Shown: piece after piece, positions 22,716-62,312 of the stretch
Position numbering within the stretch: the first letter of the stretch is position 1
How the letters are laid out: each line of letters starts with the position of its first letter
Source: a virus
Lineage: Duplodnaviria; Heunggongvirae; Uroviricota; Caudoviricetes
Virus record (IMG/VR): IMGVR_UViG_3300045988_137643
Coordinates: 28,377-92,376 of that record
DNA: 64,000 nucleotides
Direction: 5' to 3' (one strand)
Notes under the pieces: generated by a model
The model's input: the letters and a program-made list of their open reading frames with translations, nothing else
The model's database searches: none
What the model was told of the DNA's origin: nothing
Translations under genes and position numbers: made by a program

Positions 22716-24034
22716 AAAAGTTGATCGCACTTAAGCATAAGCTGGACGAAATGAAAGCTATGGGAACCAATGCAAAAAAAGAGGCATTGGCCAACATGGA
22801 TGACTTCGAGCAAAGCATGGTTTCATTGATGCTCAACCCTTTCATCCGTTTTGGGGTAAAGAAATACAAAGTGGCAGAGCCGCTTAGTGAGTCCGTCCCA
22901 AGTGACGAAAAAGCCATTGATATACTGAATAAGCTGGCCTCTCGCGAGCTGACGGGGAACGCAGCAATAGCTGCTGTTGAGTCTATCGTGGCGTCAATGT
23001 GCGCCGATGGGCAGGACGTGTTCCGTCGTTTCCTCTTAAAAGATCCGAAAGCTGGCGTTGGGATTAGCCTATGCAACAAGGTTTTTGAAAATCCCATTCC
23101 GAAATTCGAGGTGCAGCTGGCGTCACCGTATAAAGAAAAAGGTGACAAATACCCCTTCAAGCCAAATCCTAAAGCCAAATGGCCGATGATTGGCAGCCTT
23201 AAGCTCGATGGTTTGCGAGTAATTTGTGAGGTTATTGTTGACGAGGAAGAGGTTAACTTCCTTTCTCGTACTGGTAATCCAATCACGTCTCTCGATCACC
23301 TAAAGCCAGCCATGCTCGAATTAGGCAAACTTTCAGGCCACAAACACATCTTCTTCGATGGTGAAGGAACAGCCGGTTCATTTAACCAGTCCGTATCTGC
23401 ATTGCGCAAAAAGAACGTGCAGGCAATTGGCGCTATTTATCATGTTTTCGACTTCTTCCTACCGGAATGGCGAGCACAGGCTAAATCCAAAGAGTATGCA
23501 AAGACAGGTATGAAGCTGAAAGAGCGCCTGGCTATGCTGGTGGCGTTGTTCAAAAACGATCGCAGTGAAGGCTACACACAAGACATTCACCTGCATCCGT
23601 TCTATATCATCCATAGCCACGAAGACTTCATCGAACGCTTCATGAAACGCCTGGACGATAACGAAGAAGGGGAGATGGGCAAAGATCCGAACTCTGTTTA
23701 CGAGTTTAAACGTACCCGCAGCTGGTGGAAGTTAAAAGACGAAGATTCAGAAGATGGTGAAATTATCGACTTTGAGCCGGGCGACCCGGACTCTGGTTTT
23801 GCCAACACACTTGGAAAAATTGTTATTCGTCTTGAAAACGGCGTCATCGTTCGTGCGAGCGGCATTAAGCATAAATATCTGGACGAGATCTGGAACAACA
23901 AAGAGAAGTACCGTGGTCGTATTGTCGAGGTTCATTGTCACGAGAAAACACCGGACGGCAGCTTACGCCACCCACGACTGAAATGGCCGCGTTGCTTACG
24001 CGATACAGAAGATCGAATCGGAGATAAAGAATGA
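22712..24034 (+). CDS. ATP-dependent DNA ligase
   Basis: Ligase motif I KLDGLR; 440 aa. Confidence 0.7.
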   Translation: MKKLIALKHKLDEMKAMGTNAKKEALANMDDFEQSMVSLMLNPFIRFGVKKYKVAEPLSESVPSDEKAIDILNKLASRELTGNAAIAAVESIVASMCADGQDVFRRFLLKDPKAGVGISLCNKVFENPIPKFEVQLASPYKEKGDKYPFKPNPKAKWPMIGSLKLDGLRVICEVIVDEEEVNFLSRTGNPITSLDHLKPAMLELGKLSGHKHIFFDGEGTAGSFNQSVSALRKKNVQAIGAIYHVFDFFLPEWRAQAKSKEYAKTGMKLKERLAMLVALFKNDRSEGYTQDIHLHPFYIIHSHEDFIERFMKRLDDNEEGEMGKDPNSVYEFKRTRSWWKLKDEDSEDGEIIDFEPGDPDSGFANTLGKIVIRLENGVIVRASGIKHKYLDEIWNNKEKYRGRIVEVHCHEKTPDGSLRHPRLKWPRCLRDTEDRIGDKE

Positions 24035-24207
24035 TGCTCGGCTGGATGATTGCATTTTTAGCGGTTGGTTTTTTAATCGGTATTGTTGTGATGTCCAGTT
24101 GCATCAATGACTACATTAAAAGCGGTGTTATAGAAAGACGCGGTCGTATTTATCGCATTGTTGAAATAACCAACACCGTGAAGGAGATTAAGGATGATCG
24201 TATTAAG
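24031..24207 (+). CDS. Small membrane protein (paralogue of 24406-24558)
   Basis: 58 aa, below the track cutoff; N-terminal TM then GRIYRIVEITNTVKE; start overlaps ligase stop (ATGA). Confidence 0.3.
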
Positions 24208-24409
24208 TAAACGGGAGAAGGAAACGCTTCATGAAATCAGTAAGTGGCCGGAGTTCCCTGAGTACTGGAAGCCTAAAACGCGAGCTAAGTTAGAGCGTTT
24301 AGGGTTGGTTGCAAACGTTTCTGAAACGAAGTGTTCGGCCAACTACCAGTTAACTGATAAAGGGAAAGTATTGCTACAGCAATTAGTAGAATCAGGAGTG
24401 TTAAAATGA
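24194..24409 (+). CDS. Hypothetical small protein
   Basis: ORF only. Confidence 0.3.
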   Translation: MIVLSKREKETLHEISKWPEFPEYWKPKTRAKLERLGLVANVSETKCSANYQLTDKGKVLLQQLVESGVLK

Positions 24410-24558
24410 TTCCATATATCTCATTAGCTTTTATGGGTGGCTTCCTTATCGGCTTCGGCATCTGTCGTGATTTAATTAAGCAGGAACTTAAAACCAAAAC
24501 ACTGTGCATCGGAAAGCGCGTGTATCGGGTAGTTCATGAAACAAAGGTGAAAAAATGA
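24406..24558 (+). CDS. Small membrane protein (paralogue of 24031-24207)
   Basis: 50 aa; N-terminal TM then KRVYRVVHETKVKK; ATGA overlaps at both ends. Confidence 0.3.
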   Translation: MIPYISLAFMGGFLIGFGICRDLIKQELKTKTLCIGKRVYRVVHETKVKK

Positions 24559-24845
24559 GCAAGTTAACTTCTTGGGAATGGTGGTTGGCCACCTATTTCT
24601 TAGCGACCGGAGTCGCATTCGCCTTTTACGTAGGTCAGTTAGTCGTAAAACTGTTGCTGATTAAATTTGCTAGTCATAAACGTATCGATGATGGTCTGTG
24701 GCGTCTTGGCACCCTGGTGGAAACTCGCTACGGGCAACTTAAGGAGAACGAAACCATTACTATCCAAGCGAAACGATTCACTGCCACCATCACAAGAACA
24801 CCTGATCGTAGAGTGGCCTTGATCAAAAAAGTCACAACCGAATAA
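24555..24845 (+). CDS. Hypothetical membrane protein
   Basis: N-terminal hydrophobic helix. Confidence 0.3.
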   Translation: MSKLTSWEWWLATYFLATGVAFAFYVGQLVVKLLLIKFASHKRIDDGLWRLGTLVETRYGQLKENETITIQAKRFTATITRTPDRRVALIKKVTTE

Positions 24846-25623
24846 AAACACAATAATAAGTATTTACTTACTTATTTTTTATGTATAAGATGACTTTGTT
24901 TTCGTTGAGACGCGACTGTTTGAACTTAAATACAAGTGCAAACGAAGAAGTCTATCTGGCAGTAGCCTAATAAGCCAAACACCAGCGAGGTCAGTTTCCA
25001 GCCTCGTTACCGAAATGGGACACACTGAGCGAGTGTGATTACAGAACGCAGGAGGGAACATTCATGTTCCCTCCGATGAAGTAACAGAATGGGCGGTTGG
25101 TATATTTTCAACTCCATATGACTCCCGGATTCTTAGCCACTGACCGTCCATCCTGTTACGTCATTTTGTTCAATTATGTCGTTTATACTGGGTTAAAAAG
25201 CGGCGACGTAGCCCGGCTGGTATGGTTAGCCAGCACACAACGTTGAGGCCATTACATTTTTATCAATTCTAAGGTTCTATCCACAGAAAAACCGGCGAAC
25301 GTTGATATGTAACATGTTGGGCAAACATTCAATCGGAGTAGTGGCCTCAACGTTGTGAAGACAGGATAGTTGTGTAGGTTTAACCACTGTTGCCATTGGT
25401 GCCTGTTTTCACAACAAATGATTCCATACATCACATTGTATAAATTACAAAGTAGGTGCTGTCCTCAGAAACATCATCTACTTAAAGAGTTTGCCTTCTA
25501 CTATTGAGCGAAGTCGAAAGCGTCTGGCACTAACGAAAAGTGCAAGTAGCGGTGCGTTTCCTGGCAGAAACTAAACCGTCGCGATTGGCACTGTTGAGTA
25601 ATAAATACTGGCAGTGCCGAATT

Positions 25624-25698
25624 GATGGTGTAGCTCAGCGGTAGAGCAGTTGGCTGTTAACCAACTGGTCGGTGGTTCGAATCCACCCACCATCGCCA
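25624..25698 (+). tRNA. tRNA-Asn (anticodon GTT)
   Basis: Cloverleaf read by hand: 7-bp acceptor gatggtg/caccatc, D-arm GCTC...GAGC, anticodon loop ctGTTaa, T-arm GGTGG-TTCGAAT-CCACC, encoded CCA. Confidence 0.8.
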
Positions 25699-25703
25699 AT
25701 TTA

Positions 25704-25790
25704 GGGGAGTTAGTCCGTAGGGGTAGCGGGGTAGACTGTAAATCTACTGTCATTGCGACTCGGGTGGTTCGACTCCATCACTCCCCACCA
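25704..25790 (+). tRNA. tRNA-Tyr (anticodon GTA), long variable arm
   Basis: Acceptor ggggagt/actcccc, anticodon stem GTAGA/TCTAC with loop cuGUAaa, T-loop TTCGACT, encoded CCA. Confidence 0.7.
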
Positions 25791-25794
25791 AATT

Positions 25795-25870
25795 GCCGGT
25801 TTAGCTCAGTTGGTAGAGCAGTCGCTTTGTAAGCGAATGGCCAGCGGTTCAAGTCCGTTAACCGGCACCA
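25795..25870 (+). tRNA. tRNA-Thr (anticodon TGT)
   Basis: Acceptor gccggtt/aaccggc, D-arm GCTCAGTTGGTAGAGC, anticodon loop ttTGTaa, T-loop TTCAAGT, encoded CCA. Confidence 0.7.
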
Positions 25871-26538
25871 ACATAATATTGAGAACATTGGCGTAACGGG
25901 GTCATATCCCAATCTATGAATAAATGTCGCGTTGCAGCGTGACAACCAGTGTTCTCAACATTGTGGTGAATGCACAGGCTGATGTGCCGCAACTACAGTA
26001 GTGCGCGCTTTGCGGGGCTTGCTACAACCCTGTGTCGGAGTTCAGCACCGACCATCACAATTTGGCTCTCTTGCAACAGCATAACGCTGAAATATGTCCA
26101 ACCTGGTGCGGCCTGTTCACCCGCCGTTAGCTCCACGAAACGGAGCGCACAACAGATAAGAGAACTTCCCATATGGGGCTTGGCTTAAATGCATCGAGTT
26201 CTCTTATCGCTGTGTCACAGACAAATTTCCGACAGCCCTGTTTATCATCGGACGCAACCTAAAAGGTCGAGGCAAAGCCAGGTAATAGCGGAGGGAGTGA
26301 CACAGCACACAACAGGTAAGAGCATTTGTAGAGTTCGACTCTCTACCGTGGGCTTTTTCCCGCGATGCGAGCCATAAATGCTCTTTCCGTTGTGGTGGAT
26401 TCGCAGACTGATGCGATAGCTTTCTTGGATGTTAGGGAAATGCGGCCGCAAATCTTCCCTTTCGCGAGCGGTGATCGTCCGTAGTCCTAATTGGCTGCAC
26501 CGTATGCCGGAGATTCAGTACCGGCCACCACAACGGCC

Positions 26539-26625
26539 GGAGAGTAGGGAGCATGGTGCTCAAGCGGTCTTGAAAACCGTCCCATTGTGCAAACGATGAT
26601 GGTTCGATTCCATTACTCTCCGCCA
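26539..26625 (+). tRNA. tRNA-Ser (anticodon TGA) candidate with atypical D-arm
   Basis: Acceptor ggagagt/actctcc, anticodon loop cuUGAaa, long variable arm, T-loop TTCGATT, CCA; D-loop unusually short so may be degenerate. Confidence 0.5.
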
Positions 26626-26804
26626 GACACAGCGTTGAGCGGTTTGGCCTTTTAATCACCCAGATTAAGACTCCGCTAACATAAACCAGACCGCTCAACG
26701 CTGTGATAGACAATTACGGCAGACGTTCTTAACCATAGCTTGCTAACATCCTAGCAACACTTTTTACAGCGCAAAATTCAAAGGGGCTTCGGCCCCTTTT
26801 TTGG

Positions 26805-27701
26805 TTACTGATTATCTAGGTATGCTATTAACTCATTTTTAATGATCAGTGAATATTCTAAAATCTCACCTAGTAAATACTCTGCTTTTTTAAAATGCCA
26901 CCCCATATAGCCTAATTTTTCTGAAGGTTTTTCTAACAACATTATAATATCGCCGTCTTTCTCTTTGGCAATGTATTGTCTTATTTCTATCTCCCCATTA
27001 TTTCTTGCCTTTCCACTTATTGATGATTCATCCAAAACTTTAGTTATAAACTTTTCCGTGTCGGTGAACTTTCCTGCATTATGCACAATTGTATGTCTTA
27101 GCAATTCAATTAGAGTGATCTCTAAACGATAGTTTTTACCCATCTTGTTATTTATTTCTACGTCTCTGAAATTGGGTAATTTTCTTCTAAATACTTTCAG
27201 GATTTTTTTTGGTGCTTTATTATTTCTTTTTATCGCATTGTAGTAGGTTTCCATGTCTCCATTTTGTTCGATCTGAACATTTTTAAATTCACTAGTTGAC
27301 CAAAAATGGTCATGAATACTCACTGTATGGGCATATATTTTCTTAATATAGTCTTCAAACAATTCATATGCTTCGGTTATAACCCATTGATACTGTTTAT
27401 TTTTTAACACCTCACATAATTTTATCTTCTCTGAGAGATCTGTTCTAGTATACCCAATTCCAAATGTTGAACCTGTATATGGATTTGAGCATGTATAGTT
27501 TGCTAACGTTGTCCCGCATGTTATTGGGGAAGTATTATTAGCATCTAGAGTTTGTACGTTTTCAAGTGTATGCTTAAATCGCTTTATGTTGTCTTTCGTT
27601 GTAACATTTATATGACCTAACAAGTCACAACGTAATATTATTTCATTTCTTAAATCAGTGAATATTTTTTCGACAAAAGAACCTGGTGGGTTTTCAATCA
27701 T
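26805..27701 (-). CDS. AT-rich accessory gene: HEPN-motif protein, candidate abortive-infection/RNase effector
   Basis: 298 aa; Rx4H motif (LLRHTIVHN) at about 27078-27110; markedly lower GC than flanking sequence; only minus-strand gene in its neighbourhood. Confidence 0.4.
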   Translation of the reverse strand: MIENPPGSFVEKIFTDLRNEIILRCDLLGHINVTTKDNIKRFKHTLENVQTLDANNTSPITCGTTLANYTCSNPYTGSTFGIGYTRTDLSEKIKLCEVLKNKQYQWVITEAYELFEDYIKKIYAHTVSIHDHFWSTSEFKNVQIEQNGDMETYYNAIKRNNKAPKKILKVFRRKLPNFRDVEINNKMGKNYRLEITLIELLRHTIVHNAGKFTDTEKFITKVLDESSISGKARNNGEIEIRQYIAKEKDGDIIMLLEKPSEKLGYMGWHFKKAEYLLGEILEYSLIIKNELIAYLDNQ

Positions 27702-27876
27702 CTAAACCTCTACGAAAATCTTACCTATAAGACAGTCCTTAATGTAATCTGTTTTCTCCACTACTTCAAATTACCTCACAATCTACCGATAGGTGACTAC
27801 CTACTTACATACAAAGTTGATTTATAGTATAGTCCCTCTGTTGCGTATTAGTATTTTTAAAGGCATTTGTTAAGTT

Positions 27877-28122
27877 ATGACGATCACTATCTACGGACGA
27901 GATAACTGCTCATACTGCAAACGTGCGGTCGAGCTGGCGAAGCAACTAAAGGGACATGGCTACGGTGATTATGAGTACATCGACATCACCACTGCCGGTA
28001 TCGACAAGAAAAAACTAAGTGAAATTGTTGGTAAACCGGTAGAGACTATCCCCCAAGTACTGATCGATGGTCAACCGATTGGCGGATACACAGAACTGGC
28101 TGCATACGTCAGCACCCTCTGA
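27877..28122 (+). CDS. Glutaredoxin-like redoxin (NrdH/Grx family)
   Basis: 81 aa; CSYC active site near N-terminus; thioredoxin-fold size. Confidence 0.7.
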   Translation: MTITIYGRDNCSYCKRAVELAKQLKGHGYGDYEYIDITTAGIDKKKLSEIVGKPVETIPQVLIDGQPIGGYTELAAYVSTL

Positions 28123-28128
28123 TTTTAA

Positions 28129-28152
28129 CGGCTCACAGGAGCCGTTTTTTAT
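28129..28152 (+). terminator. Rho-independent terminator
   Basis: CGGCTC-acag-GAGCCG hairpin followed by TTTTTT. Confidence 0.6.
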
Positions 28153-28202
28153 TCCCACCAAACTCACTCCTGTTTCCCTTAAAATTCAAAAAACAACGTC
28201 TA

Positions 28203-28235
28203 AATGATTCCATACCTACTATGTATGGAATCATT
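28203..28235. other. Lox/dif-like candidate recombination site: perfect 13-bp inverted repeats around a 7-bp spacer
   Basis: AATGATTCCATAC ctactat GTATGGAATCATT, about 100 bp upstream of the tyrosine recombinase gene. Confidence 0.45.
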
Positions 28236-28333
28236 CGTGAAAATGAGTTACTTTTACTCTTGATCCTATAAGAATCTATGCCTAATATACTGTTTACTTA
28301 TACAGTGAATCGGCGTAACTCGGTGATTGTCAT

Positions 28334-29437
28334 ATGAAAAATAGCTTTGACAGAGCACGCGCTGCGGAGAACACCTCAAAAGAGGCGATTGAGTATCTCG
28401 AAAGAGCATCTCAAATGCAGGCCGTTATGATCTCGCAGGTTAGCATTGATATGAGATTCTCGGACGCATTCATGTTATTCACTCGCTTATCTCTGCTGAT
28501 AACCAGACGTCGGCCAGAGATCGCTGTTCATTGTATTTTGATACATGTTTTGCCGCACATTGCCGATGTAAAAGTAAGTGACATTAATAGGTTCATGGTG
28601 AACCAACTGGTCAACCCACTAATACTGGATGGCAAAATTGTTATGGGCCGCCGCGTTTTCTCTCTGATGAAGCAGTTCCTTAGCTGGTGCGCCTTCCAGG
28701 GGATGATAGACGTGTCACCGTTAAACGATATGTCACTAAACAAAGTTGCCGGTGGCGCAAAGCCCACACCTCGCGAGCGGAAGCTGACCGACGCAGAGGT
28801 ATGGGTGTTCTGGAATATATGGGACTACTTCAATGTGTGCGCTGGTACAAAATGGGCGGCCAGGCTGTGTCTTGTATCAGCAAGACGACCTGACGAAGTA
28901 CTGCGGGCTAAAAAAAGTGAGTTCAATCTTAAGCGTGGGGTTTGGAATCAAGGCAAGAGAAACAAGTCAGCACGTGAGCATTCGCTGCCTTTAAGCACAT
29001 TAATGCGCACATGCATTGAAGAGTTGTTCGAATACGGTAAAGACAGCCAGTGGCTCGTGCCTTCGAATAAAAAAATCGGGAAAGACCTTCCTATGTCTAA
29101 AGTGGCAATAGCCCAGGCATTACGTCGTATTCTGGAACGACCAGAACTGATGGAGCTTGAGCCATTTACACCCCGAGATTTGCGCCGTACTGCGCGTAGT
29201 TACTTCCCAGCATTAGGCATAAGCCAGGAGGTATCACGCAAAATCATGAACCACAGTCTTGAGGGGATAGATCGGGTCTACGACCGGCACGATTATATGG
29301 ACGAGATGCGAGACGCCTTAGAAAGTTTCTCGACGTACATCGCATCAATCGTAGAGCAACCGGATTTAGACGAAATTGACCACAAATTCAAGGGAGATCG
29401 TCTATCAACAGAGCTTATTCGTGTAAATTTTTCATAG
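28334..29437 (+). CDS. Tyrosine recombinase (phage integrase family)
   Basis: 367 aa; C-terminal catalytic-region residues (DLRRTARS, HSL, VYDRHDY). Confidence 0.7.
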   Translation: MKNSFDRARAAENTSKEAIEYLERASQMQAVMISQVSIDMRFSDAFMLFTRLSLLITRRRPEIAVHCILIHVLPHIADVKVSDINRFMVNQLVNPLILDGKIVMGRRVFSLMKQFLSWCAFQGMIDVSPLNDMSLNKVAGGAKPTPRERKLTDAEVWVFWNIWDYFNVCAGTKWAARLCLVSARRPDEVLRAKKSEFNLKRGVWNQGKRNKSAREHSLPLSTLMRTCIEELFEYGKDSQWLVPSNKKIGKDLPMSKVAIAQALRRILERPELMELEPFTPRDLRRTARSYFPALGISQEVSRKIMNHSLEGIDRVYDRHDYMDEMRDALESFSTYIASIVEQPDLDEIDHKFKGDRLSTELIRVNFS

Positions 29438-29818
29438 AGACTTTATGGCCTCAACAACCTTTTGTGATGCGCCTTTCTCTTTACCGAATCGCTCGTTATA
29501 TGCAGCAAGAACCTGTTTTTCGTCCTCGTTAAGAGGAGCGGTGCCTTCTTTGTATAAAAATGCTGCGAGTTCAGGTTGGCGTTCTTCCAGCACCATCATC
29601 ATAAGACGACTTGGCTCAATACCCAGCGCCAGCGCCAGCGGACGAACCTTATCGATAGGCAAAGGAATTTTGCCACTTTTAATTAAAGAAAGGTTGTTGG
29701 CATTTTTATAACCAATAAGTCTGGCTATTTGGGCCTGACTCATAGGTGAGGATTCAATCAGCCCTGCGATAAAAGCAGCATAGCGACTTTCTATAAATTC
29801 AATCTTGTTGTCAGACAT
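29432..29818 (-). CDS. XRE-family HTH repressor (CI-like)
   Basis: HTH SQAQIARLIGYKNANNLSLIKSGK; divergent from downstream + strand genes across an AT-rich 250-bp region. Confidence 0.6.
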   Translation of the reverse strand: MSDNKIEFIESRYAAFIAGLIESSPMSQAQIARLIGYKNANNLSLIKSGKIPLPIDKVRPLALALGIEPSRLMMMVLEERQPELAAFLYKEGTAPLNEDEKQVLAAYNERFGKEKGASQKVVEAIKSL

Positions 29819-29849: not shown

Positions 29850-29863
29850 GGTAAGTGCTTACC
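29850..29863. promoter_or_regulatory. Candidate operator palindrome GGTAAGtgCTTACC
   Basis: Perfect 14-bp palindrome in the divergent region next to the repressor gene; related to the genome-wide TAAGT..ACTTA motif. Confidence 0.4.
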
Positions 29864-30069
29864 GATATTACATCAAAGGTTAGGGTTGTAAAGCTATTAT
29901 CATTTTTTTCGGCAGGCACTTGTAAGACCAAGCAAAGGTCCATGCATGGAGAAAAACTAGCCCAAAATAGGTAAGAAAATTAACTTGCATCTGATATAGA
30001 TGTATTCAGTATTGATACAAATTTTAGTAGTATTCCTTACCATAGTATAAGTTAGAATGGATTGATTGA

Positions 30070-34000: not shown

Positions 34001-37000
34001 ATGAAGGCACTGATGGTTCGAACTGACTTCTCACTTGGGGAGTCGGCTCTAAAAGCAGAAAACGCGGTGAAGATTGCCAGAGAAGCTGGCTACACCGCTG
34101 TAATTTCAGCAGATAGCATGAATATTGCGAGTGTTATTCCACTACAACGTGCCGCTGGTGACGACATGGCGGTTATTTGTGGTGTGAAACTAAACATCGT
34201 TGATGATCCCACATACGAGCACCGGGCTAAACTTGCTAAAGAATCTAAGGGATGTATGGAATCATTAGAGCGAGGACGTAACTACTCGTTTACCGCTCTA
34301 ATTAAAAATGAGCAAGGATATCGCGACATCTGCGAACTAATGACGGTGGCCAACACACGAGAACAGTTCTACTTTGTACCGCGTCTCTCGCTCGAACAGT
34401 TGGTTTCTACATATGCCAAAGGCAACATCATCCTGCTCACTTCCGACATCGGTAGCGTGTTCCAACGCAACGATTTTGCAAAAATCATAAGCACACTGAT
34501 TACAGCGGGTGGAAAAGACAACTTCTATAGTGTGGTTTATCCGCACCCTACCCCATTCTACGACCAGATTAACGTCCGGGCGATGAAAGTCGCCAGCGCA
34601 CTGAAAATAGAGCCAGTAGCGTTCTATCCCGCTTATTACGAATCGATCGACGATGCAGACATTAAAGACATTGCGCACATGGTTACGAACAACATCAAAA
34701 TCGACCAGCCGCATCGTCTGCGTATCCCCCACCAGCGAGATAACGCCGTCAATGGTCGCCGCCATCTCCTTGAGGCGCTGAAAGCCTTCTCCGTTCGCAT
34801 GGATGTGCCGGTAACAGCTGCAATGGCCTCAACAACGCAGGATACCATTATCGATGCCTGCACATGGCGCTGGCATGAATTGCCACCAGCACTGCCAAAG
34901 ATGGCAGACGACGAGCCTGCAACGCTGATGAAACTGGCCGTTGCTGGGCTGCGTAAACGTCTTACCACAAAAGAGTTTGGCTACACACCACCGGCTTCTG
35001 AGAACAGGATTTATGTTGAACGGCTTAAGTACGAAATGGACACGCTGACTCGCCTGGGATTTTGTGGTTACTTCCTGATGGTACGCGATCTGATGAATCA
35101 CAGCCGTGAAACTGGCATTCCTGTCGGGCCTGGTCGTGGTTCCTCTGCCGGTTCTCTGGTGGCGTGGTGCATAGGCATAACCAACGTCGACCCAATCCGT
35201 CACGGTCTTCTGTTTGAGCGTTTCATCAACCCTGAGCGTCTCGACTTGCCGGATGCGGACTTGGACTTCAGCCAGGCACGTCGCCATGAGGTGATCGAGT
35301 ATCTGAATGAACGCTACGGCGAAGATTACGTTGCAGGCATTCCGAACTTCACCTACCTGGGCGCAGCCTCTGCACTACGTGACACCGCTCGTATTTATGG
35401 TGTGGAGTCCGCAGATATGGCGGTATCAAAAGAACTGAAGAACGTCGAGGATGATAGCCTTCCATTGGAAGAACTGCGCGAACAACTGGCAAGTCTCGAC
35501 AAATACGCAACAAAATATCCTGATGCATTCAATGCAGCCTGCAAGTTACAAAGCCTTATGCGTGGCTTTGGTAGACATGCGGCAGGGATGATCGTAGCAG
35601 GTGTTCCTCTGACAGAACGCACACCGGTTGAGCGCCGTGGTGACGCGCGTTGTATCGCATTTGACAAGCGTTACTGCGAGGCTATGGGCCTAATTAAGCT
35701 GGACGTGCTTGGCCTGGCAACTCTCGATTTGCTCGATAGTGCAAAACGCTACATAAAAGAGAACACAGGTGAAGATATCAATCTTGATGCCATTTCTCTT
35801 GAGGATCGCAAGGTGCTGGATGGTTTTGCTGCTGGGTACACTCAAGGTGTTTTCCAGCTTGAATCAGGCCCAATGCGCAAGCTGCTTAAAGATTTAGGTG
35901 GTGGAATTGAGCCAATGAGCTTTAAAACGGTTGTTGCTACGACTGCGCTCTTCCGGCCGGGGCCAATTCAGTCAGGCATGTTGGATGATTATGTTTCTGT
36001 CGCCAAAGGCTTTATGACGCCGGAATCATTACACCCCGTTCTTGATGAACTTACCGCAGAAACAAATGGCGTGATTCTCTATCAGGAACAGACGATGAAC
36101 GCGACTCGATTGCTTGCTGGCTTCACAATGGCTGAAGCTGACGGTGTTCGTAAAGCGATCGGCAAAAAAGACATGGAAAAAATGAAGAGCATGGGCGAGA
36201 AGTTCATCGTTCAGGCTCAAGCTGGCTGGATAGACGTTGAGCTGGAAGATGGCACTACACAGCGCATTCACCGTGCGGAACATTTTAAATGCGAAGACGG
36301 AACTCTGAAAACTGTCGAAGAGGCACTTGAGTACGGCGCAAAACTACCTATAAACGCAGTACGCGTTACAGCGTCACATCCAGGGCTATCAGAGATGAAA
36401 GCGAAGGAGATCTGGACCGCATTCGAAAAGAATGGTGCCTACCAGTTCAACAAATCACACTCTGTTGCTTACTCCTTAATCAGTTATCAATCTATGTGGT
36501 TGAAAACTCATTATCCCGCAGAGTTTTTCGCTGCTGCTCTCACTATTCTTGGCGAAGATAAACACCAGGGGCTGGTTAAAGATGCGCTGACCTATGGTAT
36601 TCGCGTATTGCCACCAGACGTTAACGTGTCATCTAACCGAATCGAGATCCGCACGCTTGAAGATGGCAGCCAGGTGCTGTATGCGCCCTTCTCTGCTGTG
36701 AAAGGTTGTTCTGAGAATGGCTGCCAGGCCATCATGAGAGCGCGAGAAAAAGTTGGCGGCAAATTCGAGTCACTGGCGCAATTCGAAGAAGCTGTCGAGA
36801 AACGTGCCTGTAATAGTCGAGTGCGCGAATCACTGCAAAAAGTAGGGGCGTTTGCATCCATCGAGCCAGGTAGTCTGCCAGCAACTGATCCAGAGCGTCT
36901 CCGCGACCAAGCTGAATTGATGGGAAACCTTGTCATAGACGCAGTTAAAGCCTCACGTCCGTTTGAGATGAACCCCAAACGTTCGGCTGAGATTAACGTG

Positions 37001-62267: not shown

Positions 62268-62272
62268 AGCAA

Positions 62273-62312
62273 AAGCCTACTTTAAAGAGAGTTTAAAGTA
62301 GGCTTTCTTTTA
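62273..62312 (+). terminator. Rho-independent terminator
   Basis: AAGCCTACTTTAA-agagagt-TTAAAGTAGGCTT then TCTTTT. Confidence 0.6.

Follow-up and report, generated by a model that had tools for sequence, protein, structure and literature searches.

The DNA stretch analyzed here (positions 28,377 to 92,376 of IMG/VR record IMGVR_UViG_3300045988_137643, a virus of the Caudoviricetes; 64,000 nucleotides, hereafter the window) belongs to an SSU5-like phage-plasmid that shows 96-99% identity to the Escherichia phages Cyrano, CMS-2020a and PhiR41_1 and about 74% identity to Klebsiella phage-plasmids. At 28203-28235 it carries a 33-bp repeat, read directly from the sequence as AATGATTCCATAC-ctactat-GTATGGAATCATT, i.e., a 13-7-13 inverted repeat, which lies within the 211-bp gap between a glutaredoxin gene and the open reading frame (ORF) of a tyrosine recombinase (int, 28334-29437). 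The end of the repeat and the recombinase ATG are 98 bp apart. An earlier note on this DNA had described two perfect 13-bp arms around a short asymmetric spacer, located about 100 bp before the recombinase gene of a phage-plasmid; the arms and spacer read exactly as claimed, and both the distance and the type of element are borne out by the measurements given above. The repeat is probably (we would put the probability at roughly 0.6) a simple site of the adjacent recombinase, of the Cre/lox or XerH/dif type, which would serve multimer resolution and possibly cyclization. The preference of the earlier note for a Cre/lox-like system over an integrase with its attP site thus appears to be favored by the linkage of repeat and gene, the conservation pattern, the co-variation of the arms, the single site, the lack of an arm-binding domain and the lack of chromosomal copies. 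Binding by the recombinase, strand exchange and the biological role are what we infer from these observations, multimer resolution in particular from architecture and context.

Anatomy of the site

The two arms pair perfectly, and the outer neighboring bases add no further pairing on either side. The spacer is itself close to palindromic (c-TA-c-TA-t), and the repeat search also scores the site as 16-1-16 (94%). The window was shuffled 60 times under a first-order Markov model and searched for perfect repeats with arms of at least 13 bp and spacers of 3-10 bp; the mean was 0.017 such repeats per shuffled window, compared with two in the real one. The sole other comparable perfect repeat in the window is AAAGCCTACTTTAAA-gagag-TTTAAAGTAGGCTTT at 62272-62306 (15-5-15). 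Besides the site itself, no arm-like motifs were found within about 200 bp of it. An A/T-rich motif to its left (Table 1), which may be a bending or accessory element, marks the position (-19) at which homology to Cyrano and to Klebsiella pJN2-26 begins.

Folded as a hairpin, the repeat forms a 13-bp stem with a DNA free energy of -12.1 kcal/mol (z = -6), which is the point in favor of a protein-independent structural element, i.e., a hairpin terminator or a cruciform. Such an explanation is nevertheless barely credible: neither a terminator nor a known RNA was found at the repeat, no T-run follows the stem on either strand, the glutaredoxin gene has a separate terminator of its own, and it is the arm sequence itself that is conserved and not just the pairing, the arm even recurring as unpaired single copies.

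Linkage of the site to the recombinase gene

Related loci were gathered by way of the recombinase protein (76 in total), and in 72 of them the repeat is found once, about 75-130 bp upstream of the int start codon. Regarding the four loci without the standard repeat, two are very distant hits, one has arms that differ in the outermost base and one has a replaced int 5' end. For the reverse search IMG/VR was scanned for TGATTCCATAC-N7-GTATGGAATCA, which yielded 113 stretches matching the arm pattern, each with one site. The int gene lies 40-110 bp from the site in 104 of the 110 new loci, and in the remaining six either the end of the locus is cut or a group II intron stands between site and gene. 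Such an intron (Rfam RF02005, 183 bits) is located right after the LexA box in some Klebsiella-type relatives (locus L156, 13247-13472; also L174 and L175). Taken together, about 190 related loci have the repeat, each element a single copy located 40-175 bp upstream of the gene.

A single full site is all that each related locus contains within about 10 kb, and the count is likewise one in each of the 252 E. coli plasmids and in the complete 108-kb genome of Cyrano. A second full copy was not found in the window, in the complete Cyrano genome or in any related locus. A search of the complete element and of host genomes for a second copy, which the earlier note had proposed, thus gave one full site in Cyrano and none on E. 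coli chromosomes. Sites similar to the dif, cer or psi sites of the Xer system were not found in the window or in Cyrano either, at up to two mismatches per arm, so no alternative resolution site is apparent.

Nissabacter, Serratia, Photorhabdus, Xenorhabdus, Providencia and others have plasmid-size contigs that encode homologues of the recombinase with 44-62% identity. Where the identity is 56-60%, only the outermost base of the arms differs, and it does so in both arms at once. Two arm classes can be told apart, TGATTCCATAC (recombinase at least 56% identical) and TGACTCCAGAC (44-53%), the arms shifting symmetrically from one to the other. The repeat TGACTCCAGAC-N7-GTCTGGAGTCA stands upstream of the gene in Xenorhabdus (where the last base of one arm deviates), Pantoea, Rahnella, Ewingella and Erwinia; the Providencia site reads ATGACTCCAGAC-N7-GTCTGGAGTCAT, and a Photorhabdus element has an imperfect arm pair that is intermediate between the classes.

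A lone recombinase gene with the TGACTCCAGAC-type site occurs in a 508-kb Pantoea vagans record and a 723-kb Rahnella victoriana record, as well as on a contig of about 100 kb from Ewingella and on 437-459-kb contigs from Pantoea and Erwinia. To judge from their size, these large records are probably plasmids. The genes around these loci are metabolic, and no phage genes, helix-turn-helix (HTH) repressor or orf70 are found nearby. Because the site stands there beside the recombinase without the repressor or orf70, its partner must be the recombinase, the one gene by which the repeat is accompanied throughout.

Conservation of arms and spacer

The 12-mer ATGATTCCATAC of the left arm is invariant in the 72 related loci (the 11-mer TGATTCCATAC in L076); the arms are 100% conserved, compared with 60-75% identity in the flanking DNA. 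The spacer measures 7 bp in all loci, and at least 14 spacer sequences occur among the relatives, all of which are AT-rich and in most cases have CTA at one of their ends. For four types, both orientations relative to int are seen, as exact reverse complements (CTACTAT/ATAGTAG, CTATTAA/TTAATAG, CTATAGA/TCTATAG and TTATATA/TATATAA). The loci with flipped spacers are L002/L079 (PhiR41_1), L007, L068, L092-L095 and loci from IMG/VR. A coupling of the flip to a change of the left flank was considered and rejected, as L039 and PhiR41_1 have both flanks in common and carry opposite spacers. The surroundings being otherwise similar, the asymmetric centre must turn around relative to the gene in the course of evolution. 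Conservative recombination is unable to do this to a spacer with respect to its flank, so that loop inversion of the hairpin-forming repeat would be the better explanation. Among E. coli plasmids the flip is uncommon, and a search of the complete genomes of this species yielded no full-length exact match to the flipped form. As far as sequence comparison goes, a symmetric recombinase core site would be expected to combine arms that do not vary and a spacer of fixed length with freedom in spacer sequence and orientation.

The recombinase

Among 29 homologues, down to 25% identity, residues R185, K211, R284/R285 and Y316 are invariant and H307 is nearly so. The arm-binding domain PF13356 was not found in the recombinase, whereas homologues at 26-34% identity have it. 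In an AlphaFold2 model (predicted local distance difference test score, pLDDT, 84.5) an all-helical N-terminal part is followed by the catalytic domain. The best fold match is to residues 75-356 of lambda Int, i.e., to its core-binding and catalytic domains only, with an E value of about 1e-7; other solved structures matched are Tn1549 integrase, XerH, XerA and IntI, and YopR and SroF also appear. A sequence search against the PDB gave no hit at E values of up to 1. Among named families, the P4/CP4-57-type integrase domain comes nearest, the relationship being distant. On the model, the enzyme would be of the two-domain, simple-site type in function, and it is no relative of Cre by sequence.

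Replicons carrying the recombinase gene

PLSDB has 841 plasmids with the recombinase gene; they come from Klebsiella, Escherichia, Enterobacter, Yersinia (pMT1-like), Salmonella (of the size of pHCM2) and others and include many Klebsiella plasmids as well as plasmids related to pMT1 of Yersinia pestis and to pHCM2 of Salmonella Typhi. In a set of 5,426 complete E. coli genomes, 252 (about 5%) have the gene; all of its 255 places in these genomes are on plasmids and none is on a chromosome. The 33-mer gave no chromosomal match in the same set, its matches being confined to the same plasmids, and neither an attB-like sequence nor integrated forms were seen in E. coli. When one genome per species was scanned, close relatives turned up solely on contigs of 11-109 kb, and the site is intact, never split, in every locus examined.

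These data bear on the proposal that the repeat is the core of an attP site, at which the enzyme integrates the phage-plasmid into a chromosomal attB. The annotation of the gene as an integrase, its distant kinship with the P4/CP4-57-type enzymes and its position in a lysogeny module beside a repressor agree with that proposal, and older literature reportedly describes chromosomal integration of Yersinia pestis pMT1/pFra. The proposal is improbable all the same, given the purely plasmid-borne occurrence in E. coli, the intact site in all loci, the lack of an arm-binding domain and of arm-type repeats nearby, and the occurrence of the recombinase-site pair on megaplasmid-size replicons as well. 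It is also at odds with the spacers, which differ between plasmids of one host species (CTACTAT, TCCTTAG, TCTTTAG) and are incompatible with one conserved attB overlap: the two site copies in a plasmid dimer always match, whatever the spacer, whereas a conserved chromosomal attB would forbid such freedom within one host species.

Table 1. Features in and around the recombinase locus, with positions in the window
Feature	Position	Strand	Remarks
Half-site AATGATTCCATATATC	24405..24420	+	One mismatch here, none in most relatives; at the start codon of a 50-residue hydrophobic ORF
Half-site AATGATTCCATACATC	25417..25432	+	About 190 bp (192 bp) upstream of the tRNA cluster; island of 100% identity, 25 distinct sequences
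Glutaredoxin gene	27877-28122		Own terminator at 28127-28146
A/T-rich motif AAAATTCAAAAAA	28181..28193	+	Some 10 bp to the left of the site; recurs as AGAWTTYAAAWWW where the left flanks are otherwise unrelated
Left arm AATGATTCCATAC	28203..28215	+	Putative recombinase-binding element
Spacer CTACTAT	28216..28222	+	7 bp, asymmetric; putative crossover/overlap region
Right arm GTATGGAATCATT	28223..28235	+	Reverse complement of the left arm
Candidate int promoter TTGATC-17 nt-TAATAT	28260..28288	+	Read from sequence; conserved in relatives
LexA-box-like TACTGTTTACTTATACAGTG (CTG-N10-CAG)	28288..28307	+	Abuts the -10 hexamer
Tyrosine recombinase gene (int), 367 amino acids	28334..29437	+	Pfam PF00589 (Phage_integrase) 5e-10, PF22022; PHROG 1 integrase
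HTH (XRE-like) putative prophage repressor	29432..29818	-	Convergent with int
Half-site, minus-strand AATGATTCCATACATC	34251..34266	-	Inside the DNA polymerase III alpha gene, codons about 85-89

Single half-sites

Three single copies of the arm, extended to ATGATTCCATACATC, are located 2.8-6 kb from the palindrome (Table 1), the two left copies on the plus strand and the right copy on the minus strand. Their number was reached in none of 100 shuffles, and in the complete Cyrano genome the three half-sites are the only copies of the arm besides the full site. They stand out as stretches of complete identity in the comparison of relatives. In the polymerase gene the 12-mer is invariant including its wobble positions, and the flanking codons vary at the third position. 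Every relative with TGATTCCATAC arms has the half-sites, including those in which recombinase identity is as low as 56-60%. They were not found in the TGACTCCAGAC clade, where palindrome and gene remain. A Ter-like or KOPS-like polarity was considered and dropped, the orientation pattern of three sites having a chance probability of about 1 in 4. A degenerate second arm or a common spacer at the half-sites (ATCACAT, ATCTCAT, ATCCCTT), as in shufflon-like inversion, was likewise rejected, and synteny is constant in about 70 loci. With neither a second arm nor a shared spacer, recombination between half-sites is therefore unlikely.

By analogy with recombinase-fold repressors such as YopR, binding of monomers with a regulatory effect is possible at the half-sites. 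A rather doubtful extension of this idea is that the recombinase is also an SOS-induced regulator, the monomers of which would sit on the three half-sites, oriented toward the palindrome from either side, and tune early or replication functions at induction of the prophage, and that the palindrome might in addition be the crossover point for cargo swaps. The half-sites, the LexA box and the spacer flips were absent from the earlier note and leave room for an additional or alternative DNA-binding role.

In its strict form, such a role would make the palindrome and the half-sites mere regulatory binding sites of a recombinase-fold protein or another factor, through which transcription or replication genes would be controlled without strand exchange, like those of YopR and SroF of SPbeta-like phages. 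This is an unlikely explanation, albeit one with several observations on its side: the conservation of the half-sites including wobble positions, in a polymerase gene, at a start codon and ahead of tRNAs, the presence of YopR and SroF among the fold matches, and the situation in Pantoea, where the repeat ends 19 nucleotides before the ATG, so that binding would affect expression of the gene itself. However, the conservation of the catalytic R, K, R, H and Y in the homologues argues for a working enzyme, the TGACTCCAGAC clade keeps palindrome and gene without half-sites, the repeat in the window is at least 25 bp upstream of the -35 hexamer and thus in a poor position for repression, and a fixed 7-bp spacer between arms of 12-13 bp is recombinase geometry.

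Promoter, LexA box and neighboring repressor

The candidate int promoter scores 8/12, compared with a scanner threshold of 9/12. In the LexA-like box next to it (Table 1), CTG-N10-CAG is kept and the interior is variable in 36 of the 39 distinct downstream sequences; it is missing only in the distant loci L076, L084 and L089, and it follows the int promoter in every lineage with at least 79% recombinase identity. The recombinase gene of the enterobacterial clade is predicted, from these sequences, to be SOS-inducible through the box. Cyrano is induced by ciprofloxacin (PMC9928086).

The HTH repressor is a neighbor of the recombinase in the phage-plasmids and no partner of the site. That the repeat might be the operator of this repressor was considered, as it is a palindrome in a lysogeny module with the repressor gene 1.2 kb away, but the idea is highly improbable. 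The control region of the repressor has a different conserved 14-bp palindrome, and the motifs of that region (GGTAAG/TAAGTA) are unchanged in lineages with altered repeat arms; the repeat also occurs without the repressor on megaplasmid-size replicons. Moreover, a centre-to-centre distance of 20 bp and half-sites of 12 bp are atypical for a small dimer of the Cro/CI type. The palindrome of the control region, GGTAAGTGCTTACC (GGTAAG-N2-CTTACC), is located at 29850-29863 in the divergent region between the HTH repressor and a conserved ORF of 70 amino acids; more GGTAAG/CTTACC copies follow at 29970-30045, and related TAAGTA motifs are present in distant relatives. These motifs are likely the operator set of the prophage repressor.

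Salmonella phage SSU5 (JQ965645, 32620-61219) is without the glutaredoxin gene, the palindrome, the recombinase, the HTH repressor and the 70-residue ORF, and in this phage cobT directly follows tRNA-Asn. The gap looks like a deletion of the lysogeny module.

Variable cargo region

A hypervariable cargo region (about 26803-28202) lies between the tRNA cluster and the palindrome, with its right boundary 1-19 bp from the left arm; the earlier note had not foreseen it. At least seven unrelated left flanks were found in near-identical backbones, and homology resumes no more than 3 bp (1-3 bp) from the left arm in 8 of 13 comparisons and at the A/T-rich motif 10 bp further out in two more. The inserts of the relatives are unrelated: that of PhiR41_1 measures 6.4 kb and includes an AraC-like gene, Xenorhabdus has genes for colicin and toxin-antitoxin, and in Cyrano the insert is CYRAN_43, a highly expressed moron (PMC9928086). 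An inversion between two sites as the origin of the left flank of PhiR41_1 was rejected; it is a 6.4-kb replacement of window positions 22741-28202. No second site or repeat bounding the variable inserts was found in the loci compared, and a second variable spot is located further left, away from the repeat, at 26803-27877. The sharp breakpoints at the left arm fit a crossover at a recombination hot spot.

The tRNA cluster itself (25624-26625) comprises four genes (Asn, Tyr, Thr, Ser), and the content varies among the relatives, Cyrano having Asn, Thr and Ser and SSU5 having Asn alone in the region. Directly after tRNA-Ser there is a 20-nucleotide inverted repeat with 95% complementarity and a 38-nucleotide loop (26628-26705).

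Integron integrases are known to have a LexA box. The LexA box on the int promoter, the layout of cargo, site and int 5' end, which resembles that of cassettes, attI and intI, and the hypervariable left side, with its many unrelated flanks, its breakpoints at -1 to -19 and the strongly expressed Cyrano moron, would therefore be the arguments for an attI-like entry point, at which an SOS-induced recombinase captures or exchanges cargo (morons) in the manner of an integron platform. It is very unlikely that this is the role of the site: none of the inserts is bounded by a second site, an attC-like element or a hybrid half-site, only one full site is present within about 10 kb, the second variable spot is away from the repeat, and the megaplasmid copies are without such an array.

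Proposed function

As a simple recombinase site for multimer resolution, the repeat would work as follows. Each arm of 12-13 bp would be bound by one recombinase monomer, and two sites would synapse as a tetramer, whereupon strand cleavage and exchange would take place where the 7-bp spacer borders on the arms, as in Cre/loxP, Flp/FRT and XerH/difH. With one site per plasmid monomer, a dimer arising by homologous recombination would have two direct copies, from which the enzyme would restore monomers and so stabilize the low-copy plasmid prophage. A second use may be the cyclization of terminally redundant phage DNA after infection.

Several observations weigh against this explanation. Resolution alone does not predict the half-sites, which moreover persist in SSU5, i.e., without recombinase, full site and repressor; the loss in SSU5 looks recent, and the relatives are too close for decay of the half-sites to be expected. 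The usual histidine of the HxxR box appears to be replaced in the enzyme (RDLRR), and its fold is nearer to the core-binding and catalytic domains of lambda Int than to Cre (Foldseek E value for Cre about 1e-2, a weaker match than those to Tn1549 integrase and XerH as well). The breakpoints at the edge of the site could reflect purifying selection instead of crossover, and SOS induction is no textbook feature of a resolvase. Finally, the literature searched, including phage-plasmid surveys and the 2023 catalogue of Cre-type systems, is silent on the site and on the role of the recombinase.

Comparison with known systems

Among the closest parallels is Cre/loxP of the phage-plasmid P1 (with other Cre-type pairs such as Dre/rox, Vika/vox and Panto/pox). 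The arms there are likewise inverted, perfect and 13 bp long, with a short asymmetric spacer between them; the site stands beside the recombinase gene in one copy per plasmid prophage, the enzyme has two domains and no arm-binding domain, and the role in multimer resolution or cyclization is presumably the same. In contrast to Cre/loxP, the spacer here is 7 bp rather than 8 bp long, similarity to Cre is not detectable in the sequence, a LexA box lies on the promoter, and conserved single half-sites are found kilobases away. The main text of the 2023 survey of Cre-type systems does not mention the site.

The single-recombinase Xer systems (XerH/difH, XerS/difSL and archaeal XerA/dif) share a palindromic site of the homodimer type with a centre of 6-8 bp and the resolution of replicon dimers, and XerH and XerA are among the fold matches; the pair described here, however, is located on plasmids and phages and not on the chromosome, is not known to depend on FtsK, and has arms of 12-13 bp instead of about 11 bp. 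It differs from XerCD with dif, cer or psi in that both arms are identical, with no distinct XerC and XerD arms. A site directly upstream of the recombinase gene on a large low-copy plasmid is also found in ResD/rfsF of F, Rsd/crs of the Salmonella virulence plasmid and TnpI/IRS of Tn4430. In TnpI/IRS the inverted core is accompanied by extra single recombinase-binding repeats; these lie within about 100 bp, whereas the extra repeats here are 2.8-6 kb away and in one clade only. Integrases of the lambda/P4 type provide the closest solved fold in the core-binding and catalytic domains, but no arm-binding domain, arm sites, attB or integrated state was found here. With regard to the integron platform, the LexA box and the adjacent cargo are mere resemblances. 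The pair is most likely, on the strength of these sequence comparisons, an uncharacterized instance of the well-known simple tyrosine-recombinase/site systems of plasmids, and it is unusual solely in its half-sites and its LexA control.

Implications

SSU5-like phage-plasmids are common, and the literature searched does not describe how they remain monomeric. If the proposed function is correct, a self-contained recombinase with a 33-bp site would explain the stability of these plasmids, and the routine annotation as 'integrase', which wrongly implies chromosomal integration, would be corrected. The two natural specificity classes, with TGATTCCATAC and TGACTCCAGAC arms, would then be candidate orthogonal tools beside Cre/lox. 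The half-sites and the LexA control provide hypotheses that link the SOS response, prophage induction and plasmid maintenance.

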